Shown one piece after another: positions 8,979 to 47,140 of a stretch of DNA of 64,000 nucleotides. How positions within the stretch are numbered: position 1 is the stretch's first letter; the number at the start of each line of letters is the position of its first letter. Made by a program: the position numbers and the translations under genes. Source of the DNA: Antedon mediterranea (Eukaryota; Animalia; Echinodermata); the NCBI RefSeq assembly GCF_964355755.1, contig NC_092672.1:31192437-31256436 (forward strand), in the 5' to 3' direction. The notes under the pieces are model-generated. The model saw nothing but the letters and a program-made list of their open reading frames with translations, did not search any database and was not told the origin of the DNA.

Positions 8979-18217
<9,239 letters not shown>

Positions 18218-19283
18218 TTCGGTTAATTAATTACAAAAAAATTGGTTGATTTAGCTCCATTAACTGGTATCCCAATCAAACAGCTGCAGCAGCATGTGTT
18301 TATACCACAACGTAAATAAAAACAAACGTGTAGTAGTAGTTGAGCTTGAGCGGCAAAACAAACGATGGCGCTGTTCAATGAAATTAAAAACAAATGAAAT
18401 GTTCAGTATATTATATTTATATATCTCCCTCGCTTGATTTCGAATACAGTACGTTTTTAAACGAAATTGATTGTTATTAAATAGATACTATTTTATCCAC
18501 AAATAGGCCTATGTCTACTTATTTGTTGTATCACATATTATGATTAGCGCATGGGAAACGCGCGTGTCGTGGACCCATTTAACGCGTGACACTATTATTA
18601 TTGCTGTCAGAGACTTTGGCGATAACAAGTTATGGAAGCTTAGTAGGTGGTGATTTCTAGTAGGCCTACAATCAATTTGAATATACCTAAGTACGCGGTC
18701 TCTCAGACACAAAAAATGTTAGACAATAAACGTTTTGAATTGAATTGACTAATTTAAAAACCTTAAATATCGATTTATTTTTGGTAAATCTATTTAAATA
18801 TCGAATGATTGGAGATTTCAGGATACAGTCACTGGGCCTAATCGCCATGTTGCACGTCACTGAAAAATTCTCTTCTACGTCATGTATGATAATGAAATGT
18901 TCAATTCTTGCCTCCTATTAGATCAATATTTTCTGTTATTGATTTGAAATTTGATCGATCAAAGAATTCGATTCCAGCTTCTAGGTCGAGTAATGATATT
19001 GAATTTACATTCAGATCAGCATAATCGATAAATATTTTACGTTCGAAGTATATTTTGCTAAATTGGAATGTAAATATATTAAAATAATCAATAACAACAT
19101 TGCTCTTGGACAGTTATTGAAGAAACTTGACCCAATAGCCACAATCATTCTCATTACAAATTGAAGCGCAATCGAAGCACCGCCTTAATATCAATAATTC
19201 CCCGATGCACTGCACTTAGTTAGTAGTGCTCTCGAGCCCGTTTTTAGTAGGCCTAAAAGTTATATCAAAGAAGAGGCGTTGAA

Positions 19284-22200
19284 ATGGCAAACTTCTTTGA
19301 AACTAGAATGTTTAAACCAATTGCTTGTATCGCTCTGTTGATGTTAACCCAGTGTTATGGGTATGTGGAATGCGATATAAAGCCACCAAAAACGTCGTCT
19401 TCTCAATTCTACGGTCACCCTAACACAGCAATGTCAAACGAGATTGGCATATTGAATGCGACCCAATTAGAGTGTATGCAGCTTTGTCGAAAGGACGCAC
19501 GTTGCCTAGCTTTTACGTACGCTGCTGATACGCAAGAGTGCGCGACGTTTGATCAGGATAGCCTCACTGGACCGGAACACATGGAGACGGTATCTGGTGT
19601 CTGGTTCTATGACATGCAGGGAAAGAATTTAACCCAGGTAAGAATGGAAGGATTGGTCTCCACTCTATAGAGACGCAACGCAAGAAAGCACAACGTAAGC
19701 GTGGTTCCCACTAGAACGCAACGCAACGTAACGCAGCGACGTATCGACGCAAAGTGATGTATTGCGTAATCGCAAGTGGGAACCGAGAGGAAGAAACATT
19801 GCTGTAAAAATCGCAGGTTTGATTTCACGCAGGTGGAGGCAAACACAATGATTGGAAGGGCATTTTCTTACGTTGCGTAGATTGCGTTACTTTGCGTCGC
19901 AAGTGAGAACCAAGCTTAGGTGATTTGACCAATCTCAAGCGCTGGGTTACAATAGTCGCTTGTCATTGGTCAAACTTACTTGAGTTGCGCGCGTTTACGT
20001 TCTTGCGTTTCGTCCTAGTGGGAACAAAGCTTTATAAACATTACAATTAAATTGATTATTATCATTTTTCATAGATATTTTGTCGTTTTTTATTATCTTG
20101 ATGGTTTGGCTCACCTTTCTACTATGCCAATAAATATTATATATAACCTAATAATATTTATTGGCATATAAAGGTGCGTCAACCCACACCAAGATATCTA
20201 AGTGTTATGTTTAAGATATTTTAATAGAAAGTAATGATGTTTTACTGATTCATTTCCAAGTTTTAGTAAAAATGTTTTACAGACCGTTTTACCACCACGT
20301 TTGTATTGATTCAATTAGTTCAGATCTGTCATTATTTAATATAACATACGGGTTATTCGATAGGATGAGACTACTGTATTGGTAAAGTCAACTATAATTA
20401 TAAGTTATATAAGCACGGTCGACCATGCATGGAAATCAATATCTGAAATAACGATTCATGGTTAGATTAAATTTGAATTATTAATTAAATACAGTATATC
20501 TTTGTACAAAATGTCCGAATCATTTATAGTTACAATACTACGACACGTCTGTTTCGAAAATACGTTCGTAAAGCTATGTCTACACTATCAAACTAGTTTG
20601 ACAAAAAAGTGTGATGTGCCCAAATGTGGTAGTGATATATGCCCAAATATAGTAGTGATATAACATCATCATATCCATATATGGGCACATCACATGGTTT
20701 TTGTCACGTAAATACAAGTTTGATAGTGTAGACAGAGCTTAAGGACGTAAGCGCAAAGTAAGTAATTTGACCAATCACAAGCGATGGATTATTTGAACTA
20801 TCACTTGTCATTGGTCAACTCGCTTACGTTGCATAGTATTTCTAATGGGAACCACGCTTTTTAAACTTAAATGTTATAATGATTTTACAGAGTTACTTTA
20901 AAACTTGCCAAACAAGCAACGGATGTCGAAACGGCGGCTCGTGCATCAACGATTGCTCTGATCTGGGATACAGTTGCGCATGCCGAAAACAATTTTATGG
21001 ACGATTTTGTGAAAATGGTATGTGCATTATTTTTACTGACAAGCCAAATCTATGCTGCTCTACAAAATAAGGGGTATGATCAGCGTGAGCGATGCATGAT
21101 GGGACGGAATTGAGAGAAATAGCGGCCTCACAGTTTTTATTATATATATTAGGCGTGGTAACCGTAAAAATATTAACACTAATACTAACTCTAACATTGG
21201 CATAAGTATTGCATTCAATAATGTTAACAGAATCAAAAACAAATTATATGAAATTAAGAATTTTTTAATTAATTGTAAAATTGACATATTTGGTATTGCC
21301 GAAACTTTTCTTAAATCAAATGAGTCTATAAGGATAAATGGTTTTAAATGGTATGGTAAAAATAGAGTAGGAAAAGGGGGAGGAGGTATTGGCCTACTTG
21401 TCTCAGATAAAGTAACTGTTTTAGATGATAATCTTTATGATTCGTTTTGTGATGACATTGAGAGATGTTGGATTCGTGTTAAAATTTGTGATAAATTGCT
21501 TAATATTGCTGTGGTATATTTTCCAGTAGAGGGGTCTAATCCTGACCTTGCTGATGAACTATATAACCAACTACTCTCTGAAATAATTCAAATTGAAAAT
21601 GAAGTTGAAAATTGTGACCCACTTATCTTAATTGTAGGCGATTTTAATGGCAGAATAGGTAATAATGTAAGTAATGGTGATCCCATAATTAATTCTAATG
21701 GGGAGCGTTTGATAAATTTTAGTATTGACACAGGGCTAAATATTCTAAACTGCTCACAAAAATGTTTTGGAAAGATAACTTGGTTTAGACACCCACACTC
21801 AAGCTGCATTGATTATGTGCTTTCCTCGTGTAGTGTCGATAAATTTATACATAAAATGGTCATCGATGAGGAAAGAAACTACCACATGGGTAGTGACCAT
21901 AATGTGCTACTAGCCTATCTTAAATTTGAATATAATACTAATGTAAAAAATTCGAATGATAATAAACGACAAGTTTGGAATATTAAAAGCGATCAAGACT
22001 GGTCTGCTTACAAAAATTCAATTATTGATAAATTTGACAACATTTGGTTTAATAATAACCTTGAGGATATTAGTGATATAAATTATGGTTGGGAAAAATG
22101 GAAAGATACTCTTATTTCAGTTACTAATAATACAATTGGCTTTAAGGATGTTAAAAGCAAAAGTAAACAATGGTGGGATAAGACAATAGACACTGCCATT

Positions 22201-25200
22201 CAAGAACGTAAACGTGCTTGTAAGGAGCATCGTGCATGGTCTAAACATAATAGGGCAGATCTTGATAAGGGGGATGCTTTATGGAAGGATTATAAAATGA
22301 AAAAAACTCAAGCGAAAAATGTAATAAAAAATAAAATGATGCAATTGAAAGTTGACAAAAGTGTTGCCATAGCGAAAGCAGGTGGTCAGAGTTCTAAAGA
22401 CTTTTGGAACGAATTAAGGGGGCCTAAGAAGGTAATTGTTCCTTCTAACCTAAAAATTCCCGACTCTACACAAGTTACCTCAGACAAACAGGTTATGGCT
22501 AACTTGATTAAAATTTATTGGAGTAACTTGGGTAATCAAACTGGTGTCAATACTTATAATGATATAGTTATCAATAGTCATGTTTCTGATATTAGGGAAA
22601 ATTATATAAATTATGTTAATGATGATCCACAAAAAGTACTGGATGATATAAGAATTTCATTTGAAGATGTTAAAAGTTCAATACTTCGTTCTAAAAACAA
22701 TAAAGCACCTGGTGTTGATGGCATCACTAACGAATTGTTAAAGAACGGAGGTGACTGCCTTATTAGGGCACTTACATATCTTTTTAACTATTTTGTTAAA
22801 TCAGAGAAAATTCCCACCGAGTGGAATAAAGGGATCATTATACCTATCCATAAAAAAGGTAGCAAGAACGATTTAAATAACTATAGAGGTATCACATTAT
22901 CATCATGTGTTGCTAAAATTTTCAATCGTATTATTTGTGATCGTATCTCAGAATTTCTTGAGAGTAATAGTATTCTTACGGAAATCCAGGGAGGCTTTAG
23001 GAAAAATCATAGATGTGAGGACCACATATTTACACTTAAAAGCATATTGGCTACGCGAAATGCGGAAAATAAGTTAACATACTTAGCCTTCCTGGATTTC
23101 CGTAAGGCTTTTGACACGGTTTGGCGTAATGGCCTTTTGTCAATAGCATGGAATACTGGTATCCGTGGTAAAGTCTGGAAAATTATTGATAAACTTTATA
23201 CAAACGTCAAATGTAATGTTAAGTTTGGTGATATTGTAACTGATTATTTTGATGTCGATGAAGGGGTTAAGCAAGGCTGCGTATTATCACCGACCTTATT
23301 CTGTATTTTTATAAATGAACTCTCCAAAATGTTATATAATGAAAATGTCGGATGTCATACTTTAGGCACAAAAATTAGCTGTCTTTTTTGGGCTGACGAC
23401 GTTGTCTTGATTGCTAAAGATGAAAATGATCTGGAGAAAATGTTATCTATCGCTGGAATTTTCTCCAAAAAATGGAAACTTAACTTTAATTATGACAAAT
23501 CAAATGTTGTGGTTGTTGGTAAACGTACTAATAAAACTAAACAATGGCCTCTTGTAAACCACTTCATCAAAGAAGTAGATTGTTACAAATACTTGGGAGT
23601 GAATATTTCAAGAAACTTCTCCGAAAGTATACATGTTAATGATGTAGTTAGAAAAGGAAATAGATTAATTGGATATATCAAGTCCATTTTTAATGAGCAA
23701 GAAGATTTTAATAGGATTTATTTTGGTAATATCTTGTGGAAAACTATAGCACTACCTTCAATTAACTATGCATGTGCAATATCAGCTTATAGTGCCAGTG
23801 ATTACAAAAAAATCGAAAACATTCAGCTACAAATGGCTAAAACACTACTAAAAGCACCGAGGAACACGCCATCATTGGCTCTGTTGGGTGACTTAGGATG
23901 GGATAGCATTGAAAATACCCATAATGAAATAAAAATTAAATATTTTGACAGGCTTATCAACTACTTAGAAGCCCATCGTTGGCCAAAGCTGCTGTTGCAT
24001 GCATTATTTACCTTGCATGACAATAATGTTAATATAAAATGGCGATGGTTAAACTCAATTAAAAGTATTCTGAATAATACTGGATTTAATCATGTATTTT
24101 CAAATAACATACCTATAGATTCAGCATGGTTTAAATCTTTTAAGTGTGTTAATCGTCAAATGTATGAATTGGATTGGTTTAATAAAAGCTGTACCAAACC
24201 ATCATTATCACTTTATGTTAAATTTAAAAAAATGCCTGAGTTAGAAAATTATCTTACTGTTAAAACTGATTTTCATGGTGCTCAATTGAAATTTAAGGCA
24301 AGGTCAAATACTCTTCAACTTGAAAGTAGATTAAGTAAATGGGATATGAATAATACTGGTAATTGTATGTTATGTAAGGATGAACCTGAAGATTTATATC
24401 ATTTTATGTTAAATTGTAAAGTACTACAAGAAGTGCGAATTTCAGAATTTGAATGCTTGGAACAAAACCTTAATGATTCTGGTCTTTCAGATCTATGGAA
24501 TTCACTCCAGTTAAATAATTCAGAGGTTATCTTAATGATTATACTTGGTGGTGATTGTTCTGTTCTCATTCCAACAATGTCGATTAATATGGTAAACAAA
24601 GCCCATGACATTCTTGATAAATTCTGCAAATCATATCTTAAGAAAGCATGGGCCTTTAGACAACGTATAAAGTCTAACATTATCGAATGATTTTTTTTAA
24701 TTTTTTTATTGTATGTAAGTTGGTTTAGTTATCTTAATTCTGTTTACAGTCATCAAATAATTCACCACAGCTGAAATAATTTAATCTATGCTTTCCTGTT
24801 TATTGATGTCCCTAATTTGGGTTCCTATTGTTCCTTATTATTTTTGCTGGTAGACACTGTGTATCAAGAATGTGTATATCTTAACATAGATTCTAAGTAC
24901 TGTATATTCCTTTGTTCATATACTAATTGATATGCTAATTTAGTGTCCAAGCTTATGTATGTGGGTTGCATTTAATTGGTTTTAGTATTACAGTTTATTT
25001 TTAATTTGGTTTTATCGAACTTCCGTTTTATCTGAGTATTATCTGTTTTAATCTAGTTTATCTTTATTTTTATACTCATATTTTTTATATTGTATGTTTA
25101 ATTGTTTTAAGGATGCACCATTATTATGTGTGCCGCTGTTCAAAAAGCGTTTTCCAAATAAATTATTATTATTATTATTATTATTACTGGTGGCCGACCC

Positions 25201-28200
25201 CTGGCTGTGTCCGTCCTACGCTATATTGCTCCCAATTCCTTCCCATCGTGCATCGCTCACGCTATTTGCGATTTTTTTTTAAAATACTGAAAAGTTTGTT
25301 CTTTTTTATTCAGAGTTTATCCACGAATATGTTTTTAAAACAAACATTGTTGGGATATCTTCAAGAAGCAATACGGCATTCACCTACAAGAACAATCACT
25401 ATCTGGTGATCGCCGGATTGTAAGTATTTTTGGGCGAAACGAGAAAAAATGACGATGTAAACTATGATATAACGACGGAAACACGATGATGACGAAACAA
25501 AGCATAGTGGGAAGGATTTGGGAGCAAACGTCACGACGCGTACGTGATGTGTTGTTTATACGTTCGCGTCGTGACGTTTGCTCCCAAACCCTTCCGATCA
25601 TGCATTGTGCAATGACGTTCCTCGCGAAATCAAGCTATAATTTGCGATAAACCTTATCGACGAAGATGAAATTTACAATGACGATCCGACACAATACGTA
25701 ATCGACGACAAAATAGACGTCATCGACGACACATCCGGGTAGTGACAATAATGACGGCAAACGAAGATGATTACGACGAAAGTGAATCATCTTCAGCGAA
25801 TAAAACGACATTGATGCCAATAGTAAATCAAAGCCTGTTTTCCACTAGGCGGCGAAATTATTCGACCGAATCCAATGTTTCGCAGACAAAAAATAGCGCT
25901 ACTGCAAGAGCAATAGCTGCATTGTTTGCGAAACTTTTCGCTTCGCAAAAGTTAAGTAGAAATAATTCTACAAACGATGGAAAAATGAATGCGCATTCGT
26001 ATAAACTGACGCTTTCGATTCGCACGAACAAATTCGCCTAGCTGAAACAAAGTTTTAAAAATGCGTTGTCATACAAAATCCAAGGAACTGGAATCAACAA
26101 AATTGGGTCAGACAACTTGATAAAAATTGCCAAACCATGACGTCATAGGTCCTATAGGTTGTCGGAAATCAAAAGGTCCCTAAAGCTTGGTTCCCACTAG
26201 AACGTAACGCAAGGACGTAAACGCAACGCAAGCGTTTTAACCAATGACAAGCGAAGTTATAGACAGTTAGCAATCACAAGCGAATAAGCCATCGCTTGTG
26301 ATTGGTCAATTCACTTGCGTTGCGTTACGTCCTTGTTTTGCGTCGCTAGTGGGAATCACGCTTAAAGCTTCGTTCCCACTAGCGACGCAACATAACGCAA
26401 TCTACGCAACGTAAGCAAATGCCCTTCTAATAATTGTGTTTGCCTCCGCATGCGTGAAATCAAACCTGCGATGTCTGGCAGCACTGTTGCGTCGTCGGTT
26501 CCCACTTGTGATTACGCAATACAGCACTTTGCGTCAATACGGCGTTGCGTTGCAGTAGGAACCAAGCTTAAGATTGGTTCCCACTAGCGACGCAACGCAA
26601 CGCAACCTACGCAACGTAAGAAAATACTCTTCCAATAATTGTGTTTTCCTCCGTCTGCGTGAAATCAAACCTGCGATATTTGCAGCACTGTTGCATCGTT
26701 GGTTCCCACAATCGTCAATACGTCGTTGCGTTGCGTTCTAGTAGAAACCACGCTTTAATGACTACTTTAAGTGTGGTTCCCACTAGCGACGCAACACAAG
26801 GACGTAACGCAACGCAAGTGAATTGACCAATCACAAGCGATGGCTTATTCGCTTGTGATTGCTAACTGTCTATAACTTCGCTTGTCATTGGTTAAAACGT
26901 CCTTGCGTTACGTTCTAGTGAGAATAACAACAACGTGTTTTACGTCACGTCGAGTAATTGAAATGTTGCAGTTCTTTGTCTCATTGTTCTGATCTGGTTT
27001 TCATAAATGTTCGTGTTCAGTGAAGAAATCTATACCACCGTATGGTGAAATACAATGACGACACTGACGTCATTCAGCGATGAACAACGACAACATATCG
27101 ATATCGGATGACAATGACGCTCAAGTCGAGGTGTTGATACGCAATAAATACGGTTGACCAATAGATGACGACTAAAAAGTGGGTTTATCAACGGCGACGA
27201 TGACTAGTCTAATCGACAACGTCTTGGTCCTACGGCACTTTGAAATGTTCGGTTATGAGACCGGTATAGGCCCTACGTCTTCTTCCTATTAGCCTGATCT
27301 AATTATCATCAGTATATTTTCAGCGAAGGCGTGTCCGAATCCCTAACAAAGGTTTACAAATACAGTAACACTGATGACGTTTATGAATATCACCAAGAAC
27401 TGACTGGAACAAGTGACGTAGGAAAACTTGAGAAGTTTATAATTAATGGACAACTTTACATATTTGCTGCCAACTATAAGTCATATGGACTTACAGACTA
27501 CATCAGAAATTCTTACCTTTACAAGTTCAACACGCAAACAGGTAATATAAATCGGTATCCGGATGGTAAAGCCTGGTTCCCACTAGCGACGCAACCTACG
27601 CAACGTAAGAAAATGCCCTTCCAATAATTGTGTTTTCCCCCTGCGTGAAATAAAACCTGCGATTTTGGCAGTACTGTTGCGTCGTCGGTTCCCACTTGTG
27701 ATTACACAATACATCACTTTACGTCGATACCTCGTTGCGTTCTAGTGGGAACCACCCTTTAGGGATGTTTATGGTCATTAATTCTAATTATCCAATTGAA
27801 TTTCCGATTATCCTGTACCTTATCAAAGATATATTGATACACTAATTATATTCACATTTTTGGATGATTAATGAAGCCATTTTCCCTGACTGTGTACTCT
27901 TGTTGGCATGGCATTATACTTTGTACTCGTTGTATTGAGAATATGGCATAATGTTATACTTTTATTTATTTATTTACTTTTATTAGGTCTATTTGAACAA
28001 CATCAAACATTTTCAACACAAGCTGGAAATGACGCGTCATATTTGGAATTCGATTCAAACCATTACCTACTTGTTGTTAATCACTACGGCACAGCAGTAG
28101 TATATGAGGGAAACCAGGCCAAAATATAATTTTATACCCCCAGGGCAGAAGTATTCCAGGCCCGAATGGAATGTCATATCCCCAGGGCATATTTCATATT

Positions 28201-31200
28201 TCTATTGTTTAATTTCCAGGTATTGTATTAATAATTAGTGAAAGGTCATTCTTTGTACCAGACCGGAAAGGAATGTCATATCCCCAGGGTATATATTATA
28301 TTTTCTATTGTTTAATTTCCTGTTATTGTATTATTAATTAGTGTAAGGTCATTCTTTGTTAGAGAAATGGTTTGTTATTTTGGCGGGGTTTCTGTTTTGG
28401 CCTGTGCTATATTCGTAAAGAATTTGTATTTTTAAAAATTATTGAAAGGTCATTCTTTGTTAGGGAAGGGGGTTTGTTATTTTGGCGGGCTTTTCGTTTT
28501 GGCCTGGGCTATAATTGTAGTTGGTGATGAATTTGTATTTTAAATATATTAGTGAAGGTAGTTCTTTGTTTGAGGATTGCTATTGTTATTTTTAGGCGGT
28601 TTGACCATTGCATAGGTCACTTTTGTTTAGTATATCCTAATTTCTTTTGTTCATTGTTCTTTTTGTTTGGTACAATAGTTTTGTTTTTGATATTTTAGAG
28701 CCGTTTCTTTTTAGACATTGTAAGAAAGGGGACTGCTTTTTGTGACCTTTCCAGTTGCTTTGTCTATTTTAACGTAGAGTTACAGTATTTCGCTATGTCT
28801 GGAAGTATAGATTTTTCGCAAGGTAGATGTGTAGATACAGTTATAATTATTAGCGATGATGAGGAGACTGCTGTTACAGGTAGCGATATCGGTGATCGGT
28901 ACATGCGGACCAATGAGGGTGTACCCACCGGTGTTGATGAAGGAGATGAGAGGGGTAGCCGGGCTACAAGTTGTATATTTACGTACGTAGATGAGGTAGA
29001 GAGAGAATTTTTATTGAAATTGGAATATTTAGCCAGATAAGCGTTTGTTTCTCAAGTGTTAAACAAGTGTTGGATGTTAAGTCAAGCGGCTTGTTATGGT
29101 TGCGAATTTGATAGGCCTGGTCAAAAAGATCATGACTTCTGTTTAATGAAATCTCCAGAAGAACAGATTGACTATTTTTATCGGGAGGTTCTGGATAAAG
29201 AGTATGTTACAGACGATACCGTGTACAGTGAGCTGAATAAGTACGAGGAATATTCATTACCACGGTACAGACATTTTGTTTACTTTCTCGTCAGTACCTT
29301 GACTAATTCAGAGAACCTGTATAAGTTATTGTGTGAGGATATCTAAAACGTGTTTCGCACGTGCCACGGAAAAAACGATTGACCGGAAAACAAACAATTA
29401 ACAATACTTTAATCCGCACGCGTTGTAAGGAGACAATTGACAGGTAAAACAATTAATATCACTTTAGGCTAATTACTGTAAAGAGCTACGTAAACTGTAA
29501 ATATAATATAGGACCTGATTCAAGCGAAGTTAAGACCTGTTTGTATGCAGTCGCCGAGCACAGTTATTCATTTTAGACTTACAGCGATGATTTGTATCTC
29601 GCTTTCTCTCTCTCCATTCACCGTCATTGTATTTTCTAAAGCTTAGCCAGATTAAAGCCTAAAGATCACTTTCTATATTTATGAAAAACTGTCAGCAGGA
29701 TTTTTAGAATGTACTTTAAAGATCAATACAGCGATTCCAAAAGAAAACGCACAGAATACAAGAAATCTTCAAAAAAAGTTCCACATGGAAGAATTACGTG
29801 AAAGTACAGAAACAGATTCTAAACGGAGCGTATTTAAAATCAAAACAACAGTTGCTATCCCCCGATAGGTTATTGGTGCAAAAGATATTAAGAGAAAATT
29901 TAGATTGTGATTACCTTCAACTTCTTGATAAAGGAGCAGCCGATACATTGTTTAATAAATGTGAGGAAGAGATTGACTGTTTTACCGGTGATCTTGCAAA
30001 GGTGAAAGTATACGGAAAGTGGTTTAATATTCCTAGAAGACAGGTTGGTTCCATTATATTTGTTCTTCATCGTGGTTTTGTATTATTATTAATGATGTAC
30101 TAGTATTTCACTTCCTTTTTTATTTACCGTTGAGTAGTTCGGTGCTATTTACTCGCTTACTGTAAATATTTTTTGTGCGTATTCATTTTCATCTTACCAG
30201 ATAAGTTTCATTAATTACTTTCTTTGTATGATTTCCCCTCTGCAGGTTTCTTTCGGCGATTCGGGCTTAACTTACACATTTTCAGGTAATACAGTACCAT
30301 ATTTACCGTGGCCTTCATTCCTGGAAGATCTCCGCGATCTTTTAAAATCGGTTACAGGACATTACTTCAACTTTGTTTTGGTCAACCGGTAAATATTCTT
30401 GTTTTTTTGTTTTTTTTGATTGATTAAAAAGGTCCAGCGTTTACCTCTAAAACTATACGCATGAACAATGATATCAGTGGTCAAACTGAGTAATTTTTTA
30501 CAATTTGCGGGATAAGATTGTTCTAATTGTATTATGCAAGTGTTTATTTTACTTTACACCCCCGATGGATAATAGGTTTTCTTTGGTCTCATGTTATTGT
30601 ATTTTGTCATTACTCAGATATGCTACTGGTAGTGATTACATTGGTGAACACAAAGATGATGAGAAAGACATGAATCACTTTAGTCCAATCGCCTCTGTAT
30701 CATTGAGGCAAACACGTATGTTTAGATTTCGGCATGGTGATGCACGGGGTCAGAGTCCCAAAAGAATCATTAAGCCAGTAACTGTTGATCTTAAACACGG
30801 TACATTATTAATGATGAATTATCCCACTAATGAGTACTGATACCATTCACTACCTAAACAGCAGTCCATCAAGCTACCAAGAACAAATCTCACGTTTAGA
30901 GATATTAAAATATGAGAGAAATTTCACGCAAACATTACAGTCTTTAATAGTTGTCGCAGATCTCAAGAATATTTACTGTTCATGATCTGTTTAGTATAGT
31001 AGTAAATCATTTTTGTGATGCTATTCCTACAAATAGCTGTATTTATTGAAATTCACTTAGATCTATACCTAATTCCATTGATCGCTAATATTCATGTGAT
31101 TGTTTCTCATTGTGTGCATAAAAATTAAATAATCTCTTAAAAGTAAATTGTATTGTATTTCTAATTGTTATAAATACATGTGTAACAGTTTCTTATGTTT

Positions 31201-34200
31201 TTAACAAGTGTGTAAGTTTTTCTTTAAAGCGTTTTAACCGTTTAGTTAGTAATTTCAAGAGAAACAGGTACTTGAAACGGATAAATGATGTCGTAACGTG
31301 GGAAACGGACTGGTAGATTAAAAGAAACGTTATAGGCCTAATAACACTAATAATAACAAACATATATTTCGTACATAATCGATAAGTTATCTAAATATGT
31401 GTGATTAATATTATTACAATAAAGACCATGTAGATCTACAGTAGTTTGACTGTAAGTGGTATTGTAAATAAATTTTGAATTCAACGGTGAGAAATAACAG
31501 ATGTCTGCGTATTATTTAATATTACTTTTATCATAATTGCAAACACAGGTCGATCATAATTTGAAGGCAGGAAGACGTTTTGGTTGCCAATTGTATTTTC
31601 TTTACACTTAACACATTTTAACAGAAAAACAGGAAAGCTAGACATTCAACCGGAGCCCAAAAATTGAAATTTGTTTACAAGCAGGTTATTTGCATTAGTT
31701 ATTATAAGGCCTACTTTTTTTTCTACATGTTTATCTTTCGACTATTTAAAAAAATTTTTTTTTTTATGAACCTTCCGCTGTTTCGTTAGCAATTTTACAG
31801 GCCTGTGTCTTCGCTCTGTAGGCTTAACCTTATAACGACATATATTTTAACGATTCTTTGTAAATGCTTTCTTATTGATGGTTACCTATAGCTCTCTCAC
31901 ATCCCTTAATCTAGCACCATTTTATGAAAGATTCCTCAGTAAGGGGTTTATTACTGGCGCTAGGTATCATCGACAGGGAATATTAGACAAAACATGACGT
32001 CAATATTTTTAAAAGGTTTTCTCATTCAAGAACAGCTGACGTCAATGAAGAATACGTTACAACACGATAACTACCGGACAGCAGCAAAAAAAACATCAAC
32101 CAATCACAAAGCTGAGCTACTAGTTAAATAATAAATAAATGAAACAAAGACAAAAGAAAAGGAAATACACCAAACAAATCATTTTCGTCTCGAAGTTATA
32201 TTAACGTAAATTTTTCCTTCACAAAATCACAGGAGACGCGTTTTTAACGTTTCCAATTGTAAAGCAGTTTAAAATTGCGTCGCATTTAGTACTGCTAGTA
32301 CCTTACTGTAAAATAGTATCTACCGATATATATTTTGCTGGTCACTCATCATTTTTATTACATCACATTATTCAACTCATCAGGTGTAATATCTTTACAC
32401 AAATCCTTTATATCTTTACTTTTATTTCTTACCAGCTCATAACAAACATGAATATTACTCTAAAGGATTTATACTCAATGTATGATAAACCCCCCTTTTT
32501 TAAAGTCTGCATAGCGGCACGAGAAAACAATTGATAATGGGGATAAAAAGTTTGTCTTACATTGTTATACCGTAACCTGTGTTTTTCTTTGTTTACACCA
32601 TCTCATTGTTTATAATTATGTATGTTAATGTCGATAGTGTTTTCGCTAGTACAGTTTATTACTTGTTTATACTCGTAAAGTTTGCAGGCCTCCATGTTGT
32701 TGGTATATTTTGTAAAAATTGTATTTAGGCCTATGTTTACTTTTTAAAAATCGTTTTATTTGCATTTTATCTCCTCCTGGTTAAAATGAGTGTGATGAAA
32801 AAAGTTAACAAGTATAACCACTAAAACGGTTCATTACCTGTAGGAAATCATCAATATTGTAACATGCGGTAAACAATACAAATTAGTTTCACAAATTATT
32901 TAAACAATAACACTAACAAATTATTAGAATTTAAAAAAATGTGTACAGATTTTATTTCGATAAAAAAGTGTACAAAGATAACTTTACAAAAAGTGTACAG
33001 AATAAAATAACAACAAAAAAAGTCCACACATAAGCTAATTCTTATAAATGTGTACAGTGTACATTGGCTACAGACATTCTTAAAACAGACGTGTACAGAT
33101 TGTAGTTCGAAAAAAAGTGTACAAAAATAACTTTACAAAAAAATGTACAGAATAAATTAACAACAACAAAATCACACATTAAACTAATTCTTATAAAGGT
33201 GTACAGTGTACATTGGCCACAGACATTCTTAAAACGAGGTGTACACAGCTTTTATTTAAAAAAAAAAGTATACACAAATAATTTTACAAAAAGTGTATAG
33301 AATAAATTTACAAAAAAAGATCACACATTAAACTAATGCTTATAAAAGTGTACATGTCGATGTGTACATGTAACGTGGCATTACCATTAAGAAACAAATA
33401 CAAACCAAACACTTAACAGCTAAAACAGCATAGCGATCGTTTTCGTACGAAAAACAATACCTCCAGCAGGTATATCAACTTTAGTATTTTACGTATAGGG
33501 CATACACGTGACAAATACACACACCCTCTTGAATTGTAGGTACAGGCCTTTTACCGTTCGTAATTCAAACTGTTCGGAAAATTGAAGTTAATATTCTGAG
33601 ATTAGGCCTATAGCCTATGATTGCATTCTGCCTTCCCTCTCAGGAGCTTAGACTTTGTCAACGGTCTAAAAGAGCTGTAATGCAGGATGCGAAACATAAA
33701 CGTTTATTAATAAACAGTATATTATAACGATAAAGAAACGAATGTACGATACACCAATATAACAGTACAATAACTGATTAACTGAAGACTTGAAGTCTAC
33801 TGTATTCCTACAATCATTCAAGTAGACATTGTTTGCTGAGTGTATGATACTTTCTCCAAAGAGAATTCGAACGATGTGTTTCTACGGTTATCAGAACGGG
33901 TCAATAGTAATATAAAAAAAAACAAAAAAAAACAAAAAAAAACAAAAAAAAACGAGCAGCCTACTAACTTCCAAAAAATCAATACCTAAATAAGCTGAAC
34001 CTAACCCACTAATTAATCTCTTCCATACATCAAAATCGGTCGAAAATGATCTGAACATTGAAAAGTGGACACGGTCGTCTGTTCTTCTTTTCTGTTTCCA
34101 CGGCTGGCTTGTGACATCCTCGATGGTGATAAAGCCATGCGGTCTACACACTTATGAAGACCACATCGCATAACATGTTCAGGGAACTTATTTTTCAACT

Positions 34201-37200
34201 CTCTGATACAATGTTGAAATACAAGTGGACTGGAAACCATTTAGGAATAGGGTTTTCTAATAATAAAAGTTGTGTAAAACTTTAGTTATGGTCAAGGGGA
34301 TTGGTCAAGACTTGAAGTAAATGGTCGAGACTTGGAGTAAATGGTCGAGACCGGGGGGAAAATGGTCAAGACAGGGAGAAAAATTAATGTACACCATTTT
34401 ATAAGTTTATATTCACTTATTGTGTTAAATTTCATTTATGATTAAACCTGTATACGTATTCAATAATAAAAAATTAATTTTCTTACACTTAATATCATGA
34501 ATAACATATGTTTAGTAGTTAAGGTATTATATTATTTCTCTGTATACTGACCTCACAAATATAGATAAAGAGAGACTGTAACTAAATGTTTATTGATTAT
34601 TAGGGTTACAGTGAGAGTTCTATGCAAACATTAAAAGGCCAATTAACGAGCCACCCAACTTAATTAAGTACCGGTACCTAGCAAATGCGCTCAAACTCAA
34701 TAAGGGTTACAACTCTACAAAAGAGGACATTTTATTTTTAAACAGGGTTAAACATAAAAAGGTCAATTACTTAAAAAGGGTTGTGTCAATTGACACTTGA
34801 ACTTTACCTCTATACAAGGACGAATGGACAGTGACAATTAACCATTAAACTCTGGTCACAAAAGCATGGGAGTTTCAATTTTCGACTTCGTCGAAATTTG
34901 AGAGCCCCCCAATAAAACGGTTGACCAGAGTTTAATGGTAAATTGTCACTGTCCATTCGTCCTTGTATAGAGGTAAAGTTCAAGTGTCAATTGACACAAC
35001 CCTTTTTAAGTAATTGACCTTTTTATGTTTAACCCTGTTTAAAAATAAAATGTCCTCTTTTGTAGAGTTGTAACCCTTATTGAGTTTGAGCGCATTTGCT
35101 AGGTACCGGTACTTAATTAAGTTGGGTGGCTCGTTAATTGGCCTTTTAATGTTTGCATAGAACTCTCACTGTAACCCTAATAATCAATAAACATTTAGTT
35201 ACAGTCTCTCTTTATCTATATTTGTGAGGTCAGTATACAGAGAAATAATATAATACCTTAACTACTAAACATATGTTATTCATGATATTAAGTGTAAGAA
35301 AATTAATTTTTTATTATTGAATACGTATACAGGTTTAATCATAAATGAAATTTAACACAATAAGTGAATATAAACTTATAAAATGGTGTACATTAATTTT
35401 TCTCCCTGTCTTGACCATTTTCCCCCCGGTCTCGACCATTTACTCCAAGTCTCGACCATTTACTTCAAGTCTTGACCAATCCCCTTGACCATAACTAAAA
35501 TTTTACCCAACTTTTATTAATGGCCAGTCTCTCTTTATCTATATGTGTGACGTCAGTATACAGAGAAATAATATATTACCTTAACCACTAAAGATATGCT
35601 ATTCATGATATTAAGCGTAAGAAAGTTATTTTTTTTTTTTTATTATTATTGAATACGTATACAGGTTTATTCATAAATGAATATTAACACAATAATTGAC
35701 TATAAACTTATAAAATGGTGTACAATGATTTTTCTCTCGGTTTTGACCATTTCCCCCCCCCCCCCCCCCCCGGTTTTTTTACCATTTACTCCAAGTCTTG
35801 ACCAATTCCTCTTGACCATAACTAAAGTTTTACACAACTTTTATTATTAGAAAACCCTATTCCTAAATGGTTTCCAGTCCACTTGTATTTCAACATTGTA
35901 TCAGAGAGTTGAAAAATAAGTTCCCTGAACATGTTATGCGATGTGGTCTTCATAAGTGTGTAGACCGCATGGCTTTATCACCATCGAGGATGTCACAAGC
36001 CGGCCGTGGAAACAGAAAAGAAGAACAGACGACCGTGTCCACTTTTCAATGTTCAGATCATTTTCGACCGATTTTGATGTATGGAAGAGATTAATTAGTG
36101 GGTTAGGTTCAGCTTATTTAGGTATTGATTTTTTGGAAGTTAGTAGGCTGCTCGTTTTTTTTTGTTTTTTTTTTGTTTTTTTTGGTTTTTTTTTATATTA
36201 CTATTGACCCGTTCTGATAACCGTAGAAACACATCGTTCGAATTCTCTTTGGAGAAAGTATCATACACTCAGCAAACAATGTCTACTTGAATGATTGTAG
36301 GAATACAGTAGACTTCAAGTCTTCAGTTAATCAGTTATTGTACTGTTATATTGGTGTATCGTACATTCGTTTCTTTATCGTTATAATATACTGTTTATTA
36401 ATAAACGTTTATGTTTCGCATCCTGCATTACAGCTCTTTTAGACCGTTGACAAAGTCTAAGCTCCTGAGAGGGAAGGCAGAATGCAATCATAGGCTATAG
36501 GCCTAATCTCAGAATATTAACTTCAATTTTCCGAACAGTTTGAATTACGAACGGTAAAAGGCCTGTACCTACAATTCAAGAGGGTGTGTGTATTTGTCAC
36601 GTGTATGCCCTATACGTAAAATACTAAAGTTGATATACCTGCTGGAGGTATTGTTTTTCGTACGAAAACGATCGCTATGCTGTTTTAGCTGTTAAGTGTT
36701 TGGTTTGTATTTGTTTCTTAATGGTAATGCCACGTTACATGTACACATCGACATGTACACTTTTATAAGCATTAGTTTAATGTGTGATCTTTTTTTGTAA
36801 ATTTATTCTATACACTTTTTGTAAAATTATTTGTGTATACTTTTTTTTTAAATAAAAGCTGTGTACACCTCGTTTTAAGAATGTCTGTGGCCAATGTACA
36901 CTGTACACCTTTATAAGAATTAGTTTAATGTGTGATTTTGTTGTTGTTAATTTATTCTGTACATTTTTTTGTAAAGTTATTTTTGTACACTTTTTTTCGA
37001 ACTACAATCTGTACACGTCTGTTTTAAGAATGTCTGTAGCCAATGTACACTGTACACATTTATAAGAATTAGCTTATGTGTGGACTTTTTTTGTTGTTAT
37101 TTTATTCTGTACACTTTTTGTAAAGTTATCTTTGTACACTTTTTTATCGAAATAAAATCTGTACACATTTTTTTAAATTCTAATAATTTGTTAGTGTTAT

Positions 37201-40200
37201 TGTTTAAATAATTTGTGAAACTAATTTGTATTGTTTACCGCATGTTACAATATTGATGATTTCCTACAGGTAATGAACCGTTTTAGTGGTTATACTTGTT
37301 AACTTTTTTCATCACACTCATTTTAACCAGGAGGAGATAAAATGCAAATAAAACGATTTTTAAAAAGTAAACATAGGCCTAAATACAATTTTTACAAAAT
37401 ATACCAACAACATGGAGGCCTGCAAACTTTACGAGTATAAACAAGTAATAAACTGTACTAGCGAAAACACTATCGACATTAACATACATAATTATAAACA
37501 ATGAGATGGTGTAAACAAAGAAAAACACAGGTTACGGTATAACAATGTAAGACAAACTTTTTATCCCCATTATCAATTGTTTTCTCGTGCCGCTATGCAG
37601 ACTTTAAAAAAGGGGGGTTTATCATACATTGAGTATAAATCCTTTAGAGTAATATTCATGTTTGTTATGAGCTGGTAAGAAATAAAAGTAAAGATATAAA
37701 GGATTTGTGTAAAGATATTACACCTGATGAGTTGAATAATGTGATGTAATAAAAATGATGAGTGACCAGCAAAATATATATCGGTAGATACTATTTTACA
37801 GTAAGGTACTAGCAGTACTAAATGCGACGCAATTTTAAACTGCTTTACAATTGGAAACGTTAAAAACGCGTCTCCTGTGATTTTGTGAAGGAAAAATTTA
37901 CGTTAATATAACTTCGAGACGAAAATGATTTGTTTGGTGTATTTCCTTTTCTTTTGTCTTTGTTTCATTTATTTATTATTTAACTAGTAGCTCAGCTTTG
38001 TGATTGGTTGATGTTTTTTTTGCTGCTGTCCGGTAGTTATCGTGTTGTAACGTATTCTTCATTGACGTCAGCTGTTCTTGAATGAGAAAACCTTTTAAAA
38101 ATATTGACGTCATGTTTTGTCTAATATTCCCTGTCGATGATACCTAGCGCCAGTAATAAACCCCTTACTGAGGAATCTTTCATAAAATGGTGCTAGATTA
38201 AGGGATGTGAGAGAGCTATAGGTAACCATCAATAAGAAAGCATTTACAAAGAATCGTTAAAATATATGTCGTTATAAGGTTAAGCCTACAGAGCGAAGAC
38301 ACAGGCCTGTAAAATTGCTAACGAAACAGCGGAAGGTTCATAAAAAAAAAATTTTTTTTAAATAGTCGAAAGATAAACATGTAGAAAAAAAAGTAGGCCT
38401 TATAATAACTAATGCAAATAACCTGCTTGTAAACAAATTTCAATTTTTGGGCTCCGGTTGAATGTCTAGCTTTCCTGTTTTTCTGTTAAAATGTGTTAAG
38501 TGTAAAGAAAATACAATTGGCAACCAAAACGTCTTCCTGCCTTCAAATTATGATCGACCTGTGTTTGCAATTATGATAAAAGTAATATTAAATAATACGC
38601 AGACATCTGTTATTTCTCACCGTTGAATTCAAAATTTATTTACAATACCACTTACAGTCAAACTACTGTAGATCTACATGGTCTTTATTGTAATAATATT
38701 AATCACACATATTTAGATAACTTATCGATTATGTACGAAATATATGTTTGTTATTATTAGTGTTATTAGGCCTATAACGTTTCTTTTAATCTACCAGTCC
38801 GTTTCCCACGTTACGACATCATTTATCCGTTTCAAGTACCTGTTTCTCTTGAAATTACTAACTAAACGGTTAAAACGCTTTAAAGAAAAACTTACACACT
38901 TGTTAAAAACATAAGAAACTGTTACACATGTATTTATAACAATTAGAAATACAATACAATTTACTTTTAAGAGATTATTTAATTTTTATGCACACAATGA
39001 GAAACAATCACATGAATATTAGCGATCAATGGAATTAGGTATAGATCTAAGTGAATTTCAATAAATACAGCTATTTGTAGGAATAGCATCACAAAAATGA
39101 TTTACTACTATACTAAACAGATCATGAACAGTAAATATTCTTGAGATCTGCGACAACTATTAAAGACTGTAATGTTTGCGTGAAATTTCTCTCATATTTT
39201 AATATCTCTAAACGTGAGATTTGTTCTTGGTAGCTTGATGGACTGCTGTTTAGGTAGTGAATGGTATCAGTACTCATTAGTGGGATAATTCATCATTAAT
39301 AATGTACCGTGTTTAAGATCAACAGTTACTGGCTTAATGATTCTTTTGGGACTCTGACCCCGTGCATCACCATGCCGAAATCTAAACATACGTGTTTGCC
39401 TCAATGATACAGAGGCGATTGGACTAAAGTGATTCATGTCTTTCTCATCATCTTTGTGTTCACCAATGTAATCACTACCAGTAGCATATCTGAGTAATGA
39501 CAAAATACAATAACATGAGACCAAAGAAAACCTATTATCCATCGGGGGTGTAAAGTAAAATAAACACTTGCATAATACAATTAGAACAATCTTATCCCGC
39601 AAATTGTAAAAAATTACTCAGTTTGACCACTGATATCATTGTTCATGCGTATAGTTTTAGAGGTAAACGCTGGACCTTTTTAATCAATCAAAAAAAACAA
39701 AAAAACAAGAATATTTACCGGTTGACCAAAACAAAGTTGAAGTAATGTCCTGTAACCGATTTTAAAAGATCGCGGAGATCTTCCAGGAATGAAGGCCACG
39801 GTAAATATGGTACTGTATTACCTGAAAATGTGTAAGTTAAGCCCGAATCGCCGAAAGAAACCTGCAGAGGGGAAATCATACAAAGAAAGTAATTAATGAA
39901 ACTTATCTGGTAAGATGAAAATGAATACGCACAAAAAATATTTACAGTAAGCGAGTAAATAGCACCGAACTACTCAACGGTAAATAAAAAAGGAAGTGAA
40001 ATACTAGTACATCATTAATAATAATACAAAACCACGATGAAGAACAAATATAATGGAACCAACCTGTCTTCTAGGAATATTAAACCACTTTCCGTATACT
40101 TTCACCTTTGCAAGATCACCGGTAAAACAGTCAATCTCTTCCTCACATTTATTAAACAATGTATCGGCTGCTCCTTTATCAAGAAGTTGAAGGTAATCAC

Positions 40201-43200
40201 AATCTAAATTTTCTCTTAATATCTTTTGCACCAATAACCTATCGGGGGATAGCAACTGTTGTTTTGATTTTAAATACGCTCCGTTTAGAATCTGTTTCTG
40301 TACTTTCACGTAATTCTTCCATGTGGAACTTTTTTTGAAGATTTCTTGTATTCTGTGCGTTTTCTTTTGGAATCGCTGTATTGATCTTTAAAGTACATTC
40401 TAAAAATCCTGCTGACAGTTTTTCATAAATATAGAAAGTGATCTTTAGGCTTTAATCTGGCTAAGCTTTAGAAAATACAATGACGGTGAATGGAGAGAGA
40501 GAAAGCGAGATACAAATCATCGCTGTAAGTCTAAAATGAATAACTGTGCTCGGCGACTGCATACAAACAGGTCTTAACTTCGCTTGAATCAGGTCCTATA
40601 TTATATTTACAGTTTACGTAGCTCTTTACAGTAATTAGCCTAAAGTGATATTAATTGTTTTACCTGTCAATTGTCTCCTTACAACGCGTGCGGATTAAAG
40701 TATTGTTAATTGTTTGTTTTCCGGTCAATCGTTTTTTCCGTGGCACGTGCGAAACACGTTTTAGATATCCTCACACAATAACTTATACAGGTTCTCTGAA
40801 TTAGTCAAGGTACTGACGAGAAAGTAAACAAAATGTCTATACCGTGGTAATGAATATTCCTCGTACTTATTCAGCTCACTGTACACGGTATCGTCTGTAA
40901 CATACTCTTTATCCAGAACCTCCCGATAAAAATAGTCAATCTGTTCTTCTGGAGATTTCATTAAACAGAAGTCATGATCTTTTTGACCAGGCCTATCAAA
41001 TTCGCAACCATAACAAGCCGCTTGACTTAACATCCAACACTTGTTTAACACTTGAGAAACAAACACTTATCTGGCTAAATATTCCAATTTCAATAAAAAT
41101 TCTCTCTCTACCTCATCTACGTACGTAAATATACAACTTGTAGCCCGGCTACCCCTCTCATCTCCTTCATCAACACCGGTGGGTACACCCTCATTGGTCC
41201 GCATGTACCGATCACCGATATCGCTACCTGTAACAGCAGTCTCCTCATCATCGCTAATGATTATAACTGTATCTACACATCTACCTTGCGAAAAATCTAT
41301 ACTTCCAGACATAGCGAAATACTGTAACTCTACGTTAAAATAGACAAAGCAACTGGAAAGGTCACAAAAAGCAGTCCCCTTTCTTACAATGTCTAAAAAG
41401 AAACGGCTCTAAAATATCAAAAACAAAACTATTGTACCAAACAAAAAGAACAATGAACAAAAGAAATTAGGATATACTAAACAAAAGTGACCTATGCAAT
41501 GGTCAAACCGCCTAAAAATAACAATAGCAATCCTCAAACAAAGAACTACCTTCACTAATATATTTAAAATACAAATTCATCACCAACTACAATTATAGCC
41601 CAGGCCAAAACGAAAAGCCCGCCAAAATAACAAACCCCCTTCCCTAACAAAGAATGACCTTTCAATAATTTTTAAAAATACAAATTCTTTACGAATATAG
41701 CACAGGCCAAAACAGAAACCCCGCCAAAATAACAAACCATTTCTCTAACAAAGAATGACCTTACACTAATTAATAATACAATAACAGGAAATTAAACAAT
41801 AGAAAACATAATATATACCCTGGGGATATGACATTCCTTTCCGGTCTGGTACAAAGAATGACCTTTCACTAATTATTAATACAATACCTGGAAATTAAAC
41901 AATAGAAATATGAAATATGCCCTGGGGATATGACATTCCATTCGGGCCTGGAATACTTCTGCCCTGGGGGTATAAAATTATATTTTGGCCTGGTTTCCCT
42001 CTACCTCTACTCACAGCTTACGGAGTTTACTCAGAGGTGTATAAATGGGATTTCGCCAGTAATCAATTCCTAGCAGACTATTCCCAGATACAAAGTCACG
42101 GCGCTTTCTCTGGAAAATTATTCGCAGTGGATGGTACGCTGTACGCGGTAATAGTAAACTACTACGACGACGCAGCAGGTTACCACGCGGTTAAATCTCA
42201 AGTTTGGAGAATAAAAGAAAAAAGTAAGTAAATTTAAAAAATGATAATCAATTCAGTGTATAATTGAAGTACGAAAATGTTTAGGTAATGTTACCAGACA
42301 ATGAGTGTGTATGCGTACGTATGCATATTTTAAGCGTGGTTCCCACTAGCGACGCAACGCAAGGACGTAACGCAACGCAAGTGAATTGACCAATCACAAG
42401 CGATGGCTTATTCGCCTGTGATTGCTAACTGTCTATAACTTCGCTTGTCATTGGTTAAAACGCTTGCGTTGCGTTTACGTCCTTGCGTTACGTTCCAGTG
42501 GGAACCAAGCTTAAGAGTTCAACTTATCTTCAGTGAGTGAGTCTGTGCCATCAACGATTAGGCCGAATGTTTACCGGAGCGCGATGTTTAAATAACACAT
42601 TTGAGGCGCATTTGATAATGTGATTGTAGGTAGGTCTACTTATTTTCCGCTTAAAACTCTTTGTGTCAAAGTTTGATGTGCCCAAATATGGTAGTGCTAT
42701 GTTTAAATATGGTACGGTGGTGATATGAATGACATCATCATGTCCATTATGGTCACATCACATTTAGACAGACAATGTAAACCGGGTTCAACACACGATT
42801 GTGACACAACACAAGGCGTCCTTCATAATCTATAATAGATATATTGCAATGTGCCGCTTACAAATAATTCGTAGCTGTTTTAAAGCTCTGTCTACACTAT
42901 CAAACTAGTTTAACCAAAAAAAGTGATTTACCTAAATATAGTAGTGATGTGCCCAAATATGGTAGTGATATGAGGTATGTGCACATCACATATTTTGTCA
43001 CATAATGTTTAAGAAGATTCAAACACTGAATGTGCTCATATGTCATCCAATTTTTAAAAACTTCTGGACTAAGTTCTGCAGCAAATATTTACTCTAAATT
43101 AACTTTCTGTCAATCAATTGAATTATAATGTGAAAGAAATAAAACTAAATAACTACGACAAATGATGTTGACATATTTTGCTTGATTCAGGGCGTTATAT

Positions 43201-45178: not shown

Positions 45179-46642
45179 TTTGTCGAAGATCTTGCGTAGT
45201 ATCCACGATGGTTGTGACGTCATAGCTTTTAGAGAAAATGGTCAACAACATTATTGCTTACAATGAAAGAATAATGCAATCATTGTTATCTCATTTGTCT
45301 GTTTTATTGTAAATTTTAAAGATGTATTGTCCCCCAAAAACATGAAAAATGAAGATTAATTAAATCAGACTTTGAAGTGTTATTTTGTAGTTTTAATAAA
45401 GTTATTCACATCCATAGAAAAAAAAACAAACAAAAAATAATGTTTTCACTTATAAAATGACAAAAAATGGTTAAATTCAAACAAAAATCCATTGGCTGGC
45501 AGCCAATTTGACAATTTTTGGCTTTAAATTACATTTTTTTCAGGTAAATACATTTTTTTTCTCGATCCAATTTTTTATCAAAGTGGATAACAATGGAATA
45601 TTCAACAACAATTTGTTTAAGAATTATTTTTTCAGGGGGACAATACATCAATATATTTCAGCGTGTTTGACCTTTGATGATTCTCACATTTTATAAAAAA
45701 TATGAAATGCATTCAAGAGGTGTGTGGCGCAGTGAGTTCGAATCCAACGCCTTGTCGCATTATCCAGACACTTTACTTACGTTTGCCTCTCTTCACCTAT
45801 GCGTAAAAATGGGTACCCAGTATTAAAGGTCAAACATACAATGTGGTGATTACTAGCTGGAGCATATATTAATATGGGAGTATGTTTCCATACGTTGATG
45901 ATCGAAGTAATAATGTGAAGCGTTTAAGCGTGGTTCCCACTAGGACGCAACGCAGCGACGTATTGACGCAAAGTGCTGTATTGCGTAATCACAAGTGGGA
46001 ACCGACGACGCAATAGTGCTGCAAACATCTCAGGTTTGATTTCACGCAGGCGGGGGCAAATACAATTATTAGAAGGGCATTTTCTTACGTTGCGTAGATT
46101 GCGTCGCTAGTGGGAACCAGGCTTTAGACTAGACTCGGATGCTTTGTGCATTAAGCACTATATAATATCCATGTATTATTATGATGTATTGTTGGTATAA
46201 TAAAAAAATTAAAACATTTTTATTAAACATAATCAAAATGTCCTTTAGAAGAATTTAAACACTTATAAATATGTATATTATTATTTCATAAATCTATTAT
46301 ATTTACATATTATTTTGACAACTAAAAACAGGAGTTGACTTAACCCCTGACCTCACTCAAGTTTGTGTGTTTTTAAAATTTATTCTATCATTTGATAAGA
46401 ACAACTTTCTCTTTGTGCATAGTCCATGTTGCTTAAATATTTTGAAATTATAGATTCTGTAAAAATGTTTTATTGCACTAATAAATAGTAAATGTTTTCT
46501 CGTTATTTATGAATTATTATGTTAAGTACAAATTAAACGGATTTTTAAAATTATAAGTGTTATAGATTGGTCATCAATTAAATATTTACATACTTACAAT
46601 CAAAATATTCTGTTACAACAGCAGAACCTAAAAACCAACAAA

Positions 46643-47140
46643 GTGTCCCCTAATAGAGGTTTCCCTTGATTAGAGGTGTCCACTGAATAGGTGCCCACTG
46701 ATTAGAGGTGTCCCCTTAATATAGGTGTCCTCTCAATATAGGTGTCCCCTCAATAGAGATGTTCCCTTAATAGGTGTCCCCTCAATATAGGTGTCCTCTC
46801 AATATAGGTGTCCTCTCAATATAGGTGTTCCCGCCCCCCACTCCCCCGCAATAGAGATGTCCCCCCAATATAGGTGTCCCCTCAATATAGGTGTCCCCTT
46901 ACTAATTATAGGTATCCCCTCAATAGAGGTGTCCCCTCAATATAGGTGTCCCCTTAATAAAGGTGTCCCCTCAATAGAGGGGTGTCCTCTTAATAAAGGT
47001 GTCCTCTCAATATAGATGTCCTCACAATATAGGTGTCCTTTCAATATAGGTGTCCCCTTAATATAAGTGCCCCCTAATACAGGTGTCCCCTTAATATAGG
47101 TGTCCCCTCAATATAGGTGTCCCCTTAATAGAGGTGTTCC
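46643..47140 (+). repeat. 17-bp minisatellite AATATAGGTGTCCCCT(C/T)
   Basis: Visible degenerate tandem array; ORF 46791-47015 is a by-product. Confidence 0.9.

Follow-up and report, generated by a model that had tools for sequence, protein, structure and literature searches.

We analysed a window of 64,000 nucleotides of the feather star Antedon mediterranea (NCBI RefSeq assembly GCF_964355755.1, contig NC_092672.1, positions 31,192,437 to 31,256,436 of the forward strand; all coordinates below are those of the window, the whole stretch of DNA analysed). It contains a palindromic insertion that has the ends of a Maverick and lies between the copies of a 6-bp target-site duplication. Each arm of the palindrome carries an intron-containing copy of the DNA repair gene ALKBH2. 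The window copy has no PC4 domain and is decaying, while most of its intact relatives among the Antedon gene models are fusions of a tandem PC4 module with the ALKBH2 core. On balance, we favour the view that the broken gene has decayed and belongs to a family carried by elements, and that the intact PC4-ALKBH2 members of this family would repair alkylated bases on single-stranded replication intermediates. We hold more tentatively, as a serious possibility rather than the expected course of events, that a feather-star Maverick lineage made a repair enzyme tethered to single-stranded (ss) DNA out of a captured host ALKBH2 and its own PC4-type protein, that palindromic satellites spread it, and that it repairs alkylation on replication intermediates, possibly including damage done by host DNA methyltransferases (DNMTs).

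A palindromic Maverick-type insertion splits a host exon

The element is gene-poor and spans 13,916 bp (28096..42011). Its left end reads AGTAGT and its right end, on the opposite strand, AGTAGA, and it is flanked on the forward strand by two copies of CACAGC (28090..28095 and 42012..42017). Of 625 register pairs compared, this hexamer alone gave a match, in the register that the end motifs dictate. According to the available portion of PMC8097293, an (AGT)2 or (AG)3 end motif and a 6-bp duplication define Mavericks. The terminal inverted repeats are the arms themselves, about 6.75 kb long and 99.8% complementary: the left arm lies at 28106..34858 on the forward strand and the right arm at 34922..42001 on the reverse strand, with 63 unpaired nucleotides at the centre (34859..34921). 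The arms differ by 8 substitutions, 2 one-base indels and an extra stretch of 327 nt, a duplication in the right arm aligned at 35500-35826.

On the left, the insertion is bordered by the 5′ half of a host EPTP/EAR-repeat exon (27987..28095, forward strand; EPTP, E 1e-4), and on the right by the 3′ part of the same exon (42018..42180, forward strand; E 0.004). Once the element and one CACAGC are removed, the two parts form a single open frame, which four shifted registers lose. Since both flanks encode EPTP and rejoin in one frame, the insertion splits a host coding exon, and the allele of the EPTP gene in the window looks knocked out. The list of open reading frames (ORFs) showed no pPolB, integrase, ATPase, protease or capsid ORF within the element, and none of at least 120 amino acids beyond exon 1 of ALKBH2 and its mirror. 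Because the core Maverick ORFs are absent, we file the element as at most a non-autonomous Maverick derivative, and we infer that it depends on a helper. An earlier reading made from the letters alone (hereafter the sequence-only reading) had placed ALKBH2 as cargo of a Maverick-type element, and the ends, the 6-bp duplication and the split host exon bear this out.

The window ALKBH2 gene is recognisable and broken

The gene lies on the forward strand in three exons. Exon 1 (29720..30043) is an open frame without an ATG in which clear homology starts at about 29800; it is followed by intron 1 (30044..30245, GT..AG, phase 0), exon 2 (30246..30388), intron 2 (30389..30617, GT..AG, phase 2) and exon 3 (30618..30915). 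Exon 3 holds HKD, the distal His and the final arginines, and matches the Pfam family 2OG-FeII_Oxy_2 at E 7e-15. The window core falls in the animal ALKBH2 clade and is of the 2OG-FeII_Oxy_2 type, and the hydrophobic F1 hairpin (human V99, V101, aromatic 102 and G103) reads VKVYG in both the window and the family. The mirror copy reported at 39192..40385 on the reverse strand is there, identical in 1194 of 1194 bases and with the same stop at 39267-39269.

The sequence-only reading had described three exons splicing to a clear ALKBH2 homologue. The exons, the GT-AG introns and the motifs HKD, YH and RTNLTFR are indeed present in the DNA, but the protein is not intact. A premature TGA (30838..30840) falls at codon 230 of the 255 of the spliced gene, 5′ of the distal His in YH and of RTNLTFR, so that the stop alone removes two catalytic elements and a single reading frame lacks the complete HxD..H set with the final arginines. 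No ATG occurs in the exon-1 frame from 29720 onwards, and the one at 29709 opens a different frame of 30 codons (29709..29801, forward strand), which is not in the frame of the core. This short frame bears a weak resemblance to the N-terminus of crinoid PC4 proteins of the element type (p 0.004 with P0158 and 0.021 with P0005, uncorrected over 39 comparisons). The 5′ part of the ALKBH2 gene is itself weakly like host-type N-termini, across three successive frames, and there may be an unseen upstream exon. Moreover, 11 residues are private to the window copy, six of which (the stop included) fall in columns that are at least 90% conserved among 114 other ALKBH2-like proteins. Four of the 15 non-family residues in the window core are common with host-type rows; to judge from these residues, the core may represent an early branch that lacks PC4, or else a recombinant. 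The window copy can thus not be counted as a working gene.

Intact relatives and probable capture from the host

The best protein matches of the window gene are gene models of Antedon mediterranea itself, at 92-93% identity over exon 3. They form a family made up of a 12-member cluster and four further models on seven contigs (22-41 Mb), some of which may be isoforms of one locus. A full core is present in 13 models, with a median pairwise core identity of 98% (range 91-100% across family copies); all 13 keep HKD, YH and NRY, and 12 keep NLTFR. The sequence-only reading had recommended a search for intact copies inside related elements, and intact relatives do exist among the gene models. Truncated or PC4-only models are also found (P0010, P0020, P0021 and P0027). 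Two further ALKBH2 types occur in Antedon: the host-type gene P0022, which resembles the Anneissia gene, and a third type represented by P0005 and P0023. The core proteins of the family and the host type have diverged by 18%.

A tree was built from 35 rows over a 196-column core, leaving out truncated models and short isoforms. In this tree, the window copy and the 13 models formed one clade (100/98), whose sister group was the third type (94/84); P0022 came next (94/86), with Anneissia outside, and all crinoid ALKBH2 rows came together at 100/99. Two isoforms of the host-type gene differ by a stretch of 12 residues whose end coincides with intron 1 of the window copy, and this coincidence puts an intron of the host gene at the same position. 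In run X6, the alignment of a divergent contig breaks off at the acceptor of intron 2 (read by eye). Since the intron 1 position is common to the host-type gene and the X6 contig departs at the intron 2 acceptor, capture at the DNA level, for which the sequence-only reading had argued from the introns, gains support. On these comparisons it is well supported that ALKBH2 was taken from the crinoid host as DNA together with its introns, once the line had split from that of Anneissia.

Several observations concern these relatives. P0013 and P0016, like P0012 and P0018, have identical cores with one contig per pair, and the single sequence of P0017 is filed under two accession numbers that lie far apart, as mirror pairs like that of the window would lead one to expect. 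For the third type, divergent contigs that fit it were seen over 29734-30917 in run X6, at about 6 times the element's depth, and it may ride another repeat. No relatives of P0027 or P0140 were found in viral contigs, and P0027 had no phage match. The metagenomes gave one AlkB match (34%), in an unrelated gene-dense contig. An intronless AlkB-family gene lies among unknown proteins at 998-1573 of L003, a gene-dense and possibly viral metagenome contig.

Intact relatives are probably carried by elements

The unusual C-terminal tails of P0010 and P0002 have counterparts in arm DNA, 1.2-1.5 kb downstream of the ALKBH2 gene: 14 of 16 residues agree after an AG acceptor (32435), and 10 of 11 at 32088. 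In comparison, the best control match was 6 in 50 kb outside the element and 7 in 30 shuffles. In run X1, the summed contig depth, which is not a copy number and in that respect tells against too firm a reading, was 4,367-30,848 in 28 of the 29 element bins and 249 in the flank bin; the bins over ALKBH2 lay at 6,643-17,029. The exceptional bin (29508-29751, depth 1,134) is where the family models carry PC4 instead. With X1 depth far over the flank and arm sequence in other gene models, the element is multicopy. At the position of the premature stop, all depth in runs X1, X5 and X6 shows a different letter (X9 does not cover it), although contigs drop rare variants. Taken together, these results are indirect evidence that the intact PC4-ALKBH2 relatives are element-borne.

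The PC4 module and its likely origin

Of seven family models scanned, six have two PC4 stretches (PF02229), and the remaining one has a weak stretch. Among the best 120 of 417 matches, the PC4-ALKBH2 architecture occurred only in Antedon, and no AlkB domain was detected among 47 scanned PC4 relatives of the 140 found. The high-scoring Mytilus protein P0026 was considered as a further fusion and rejected, since this model repeats ALKBH2 and has no PC4. Among the closest relatives of P0027, a model with PC4 only, are five divergent Anneissia japonica proteins, in separate 50% clusters, and ENA proteins. Three Anneissia PC4 proteins match the N-terminal motif of the fusion (p 0.001-0.003), and three show a DENDNG-type motif, after which the fusion joins ALKBH2. 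The first residues of the third ALKBH2 type are also like these PC4 proteins (p 0.001), as is, weakly, the ATG frame of the window copy, so by this resemblance a single element gene may supply the start of all three derived types.

With a deeper alignment, the AlphaFold model of the tandem PC4 part reached a predicted local distance difference test score (pLDDT) of some 90 or higher across residues 101-250, and it folds into two four-strand-plus-helix repeats. This single-chain topology corresponds to a complete PC4-like unit as described in the accessible text of PMC7549692. Its fold matches in the PDB were PC4/Sub1 (best E 0.002), and the best viral fold match was MOSUB of a Branchiostoma lancelet adintovirus (E 1.2e-6 over 197 columns), a gene drawn once, beside an inverted terminal repeat, in those supplementary maps of PMC8502044 that were available, and absent from the accessible main text. 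These matches suggest that the crinoid PC4 genes are likely Maverick genes, and the model predicts the tandem PC4 to be an ssDNA-binding unit.

Strand preference of the enzyme

The RKK duplex-contact motif, at the position in the sequence where we take it to lie, is absent from all seven crinoid rows, the host type included, and present in all three non-crinoid rows. This triad, a contact to the second strand, is named in the consulted part of PMC8508711, and human ALKBH2 is described as about equally active on ss and double-stranded (ds) DNA in that of PMC2965238. The sequence-only reading had pictured an enzyme tuned to duplex DNA. As RKK is absent and human ALKBH2 acts on both strand forms, the emphasis moves from duplex to ssDNA, and the PC4 ssDNA-binding domains of the intact relatives likewise do not fit the earlier picture.

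Possible constraint on the family

Protein-level tests were based on 114 non-crinoid ALKBH2-like rows with 80 conserved columns. Between the family and the host type, 6 of 35 differences fell in conserved columns, compared with 14.3 expected (p 0.002), a contrast that includes the host's own branch. The 14 changes shared by the family relative to both host-type rows avoid conserved columns (P 0.018), and 12 of these 14 residues occur in other orthologues. By comparison, the 11 changes private to the window copy do not avoid conserved columns (P 0.55), and 4 of 10 of their residues are seen in other orthologues. In a comparison of two subfamilies, the core was identical at 192 of 196 positions and the PC4 part at 116 of 139. 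At the level of protein, these tests suggest constraint on the family.

Proposed mechanism and points against it

In the course of events that we propose, the palindrome would have arisen as a snap-back of one Maverick end, and the polymerase and integrase of a helper would move it. To judge from the protein anatomy, host ALKBH2 would have landed in the element's own PC4/MOSUB gene, because the fusion begins with the N-terminus of that gene and joins ALKBH2 right after DENDNG. The tandem PC4 is predicted to hold the dealkylase on strands displaced in protein-primed replication, where 1-methyladenine and 3-methylcytosine (3meC) would block the polymerase. The fusion would be made from intact copies and act in trans, the window copies being decayed passengers. 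The ssDNA intermediates of Maverick replication reportedly come from a model, that of Kapitonov and Jurka in 2006, and not from observation.

A number of results weigh against this proposal. Both ALKBH2 copies in the window are broken, and no PC4 match was found in the arm of the window copy (tblastn with 25 proteins). The right end of the element, AGTAGA, fits (AGT)2 at five of six bases. A model of full-length P0013 left the PC4 part below a pLDDT of 50, and no PDB fold match of the tandem PC4 fell below E 0.001. As to constraint, the five changes unique to the element stem gave no signal (P 0.46), nor did the branch of the third ALKBH2 type (n=9, P 0.83). The near-identity of the cores may reflect recent amplification or gene conversion, and RefSeq models are selected for open frames and may in part be isoforms of a single locus.

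Alternative explanations

Some of these points fit another history, in which a piece of host ALKBH2 was swept into the terminal region as a neutral passenger and multiplied by hitch-hiking, with the fusion and the intact frames owed to recent amplification and annotation bias. The two broken cargo ORFs of the window, the youth of family copies that are 91-100% alike, the silent test of the element stem and the existence of truncated and PC4-only models would all be expected of such a passenger. We nevertheless consider it unlikely, though deserving of weight, in view of the 18% core divergence from the host type with its shortage of changes in conserved columns, a core much more conserved than the PC4 part of these genes, and an in-frame fusion that retains all catalytic residues in 12 of 13 models. 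A second possibility is that the insertion is an assembly artefact or a foldback element unrelated to Mavericks. The arms are 99.8% alike, no Maverick core gene was seen in the window, and no fold-back joint appeared among 15 of 23 joints. Against this stand the differences between the arms (8 bases, 2 indels and the 327-nt stretch), a matching go-back joint close to the palindrome's centre, present in both X5 and X6, and the agreement of end motif, 6-bp duplication and in-frame split of the host exon, which together leave such an origin with very little probability.

Other explanations accept the fusion and differ on what it is for. It might serve counter-defence, removing DNMT-made 3meC or oxidising 5-methylcytosine (5mC) on the element, which would thereby escape damage or silencing. 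Here it matters that DNMTs make 3-methylcytosine and co-evolve with ALKB2 (PMC9246332, as far as accessible), that ALKBH2 weakly oxidises 5mC in vitro (the seen part of PMC8508711), and that the observed/expected CpG ratio is 0.91 in the arm and 0.61-0.64 in three stretches outside it. However, the oxidation amounts to at most 9% in vitro in the same portion of PMC8508711, an element that is young or unmethylated would also show a high CpG ratio, and PC4 points to ssDNA rather than to methylated duplex; we regard this role as improbable. A little less probable again is that extra copies were kept for the animal's own repair capacity, with the element as a mere vehicle. Many intact models over several chromosomes and a conserved catalytic core would fit, but the copies are near-identical and dispersed, which is not how old fixed paralogues look, the window insertion breaks a host coding exon, and the host retains its own ALKBH2 (P0022).

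Other features of the element and its surroundings

Besides ALKBH2, the left arm holds subterminal tandem repeats of 103-109 bp (28156..28592), a 149-bp tandem repeat in 2.8 copies (32941..33354) and a second cargo ORF with a Cys-rich CYGC motif (28795..29346), all on the forward strand. The second ORF has an in-frame stop at 29038-29040, a position at which most depth in three runs shows another letter; its motif reads CYGC..H.C and is mirrored in the right arm. It matched no Pfam family and none of 21 candidate homologues, and its best score of 0.75 in Atlas is a non-result. Two viral loci were set aside as its relatives, since they match 23 residues only and one, L001, is a phage tail module, which points to chance. 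No Rfam family was found in the left arm, and the element end sequence had no match among viral contigs.

The split exon probably belongs to a gene that opens with a signal peptide and a PAN domain (19257-19670) and has further EPTP sequence at 44816-45175. An unbroken ORF of 1196 codons of the long interspersed element (LINE) type (21100-24690), with endonuclease, reverse transcriptase and zf-RVT, lies between these PAN and EPTP exons. Short inverted-repeat elements of one family, resembling miniature inverted-repeat transposable elements (MITEs), occur near both palindrome ends (26180-26914, 27567-27762, 42326-42515 and 45924-46127). Elsewhere in the window we noted a tandem duplication of 1.25 kb that is 98.7% identical (10464-12961), minisatellite arrays of 20-bp and 17-bp units (1850-3525 and 46673-47156), and host-gene exons on the minus strand for a cytidine deaminase (14928-15323) and an RTE1-like protein (48164-48541).

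Comparison with known systems and significance

The element shares with Mavericks/Polintons (adintoviruses) the (AGT)2 ends, the 6-bp duplication, a size within 12.7-24.6 kb and accessory genes near the end (PMC8097293, in its available portion), whereas it is one whole palindrome, has no pPolB, integrase, ATPase, protease or capsid ORF, and carries an intron-containing cargo. Such cargo of host origin near a terminal repeat is known from nematode Mavericks, with a wasp protease and the kinase krma (the accessible part of bioRxiv 10.1101/2022.07.12.499685), whereas in the crinoid a non-autonomous palindrome carries a DNA-repair enzyme that is joined to an element-type gene. With animal ALKBH2 (human, PDB 3rzg and 3btx; crinoid host type, XP_071945810) it has in common the core (E 5e-71 for an intact relative), HxD..H with the final arginines, and the F1 hairpin; RKK is absent in the Antedon family, as in the crinoid host-type genes. 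Unlike animal ALKBH2, the family is multicopy and dispersed, most relatives have their N-terminus replaced by two PC4 repeats, and the window copy is broken. The tandem PC4 superposes on human PC4 with a root-mean-square deviation of 1.5 Å over 68 columns (E 0.004), but in contrast to PC4/Sub1 and MOSUB, the Antedon protein has two repeats in one chain, fused to a dealkylase. Giant DNA viruses and plant RNA viruses are likewise mobile replicons with an AlkB-family enzyme; in the part of PMC10598087 at hand, however, these enzymes are scattered in bacterial and protist clades, in contrast to the recent capture of an intron-bearing animal ALKBH2 that is supported here.

Among the papers listed by our literature searches, none dealt with ALKBH2 in Mavericks or with a PC4-AlkB fusion, although Repbase and subscription journals lay outside the search and may describe such elements, and the available sections of PMC11131425, PMC6431247, PMC10748475 and PMC11414722 contain nothing on palindromic elements or AlkB cargo. 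Intron-containing Maverick cargo and viral AlkB genes are already known.

The window's own ALKBH2 copy is a dead gene. Maverick accessory genes are mostly unexplained. If the proposal is true, a conserved in-frame fusion of an ssDNA binder with a direct-reversal repair enzyme would be indirect evidence for ssDNA replication intermediates, with a simple biochemical test, and it would tie the known cost of DNA methylation, 3meC, to the conflict between host and element.

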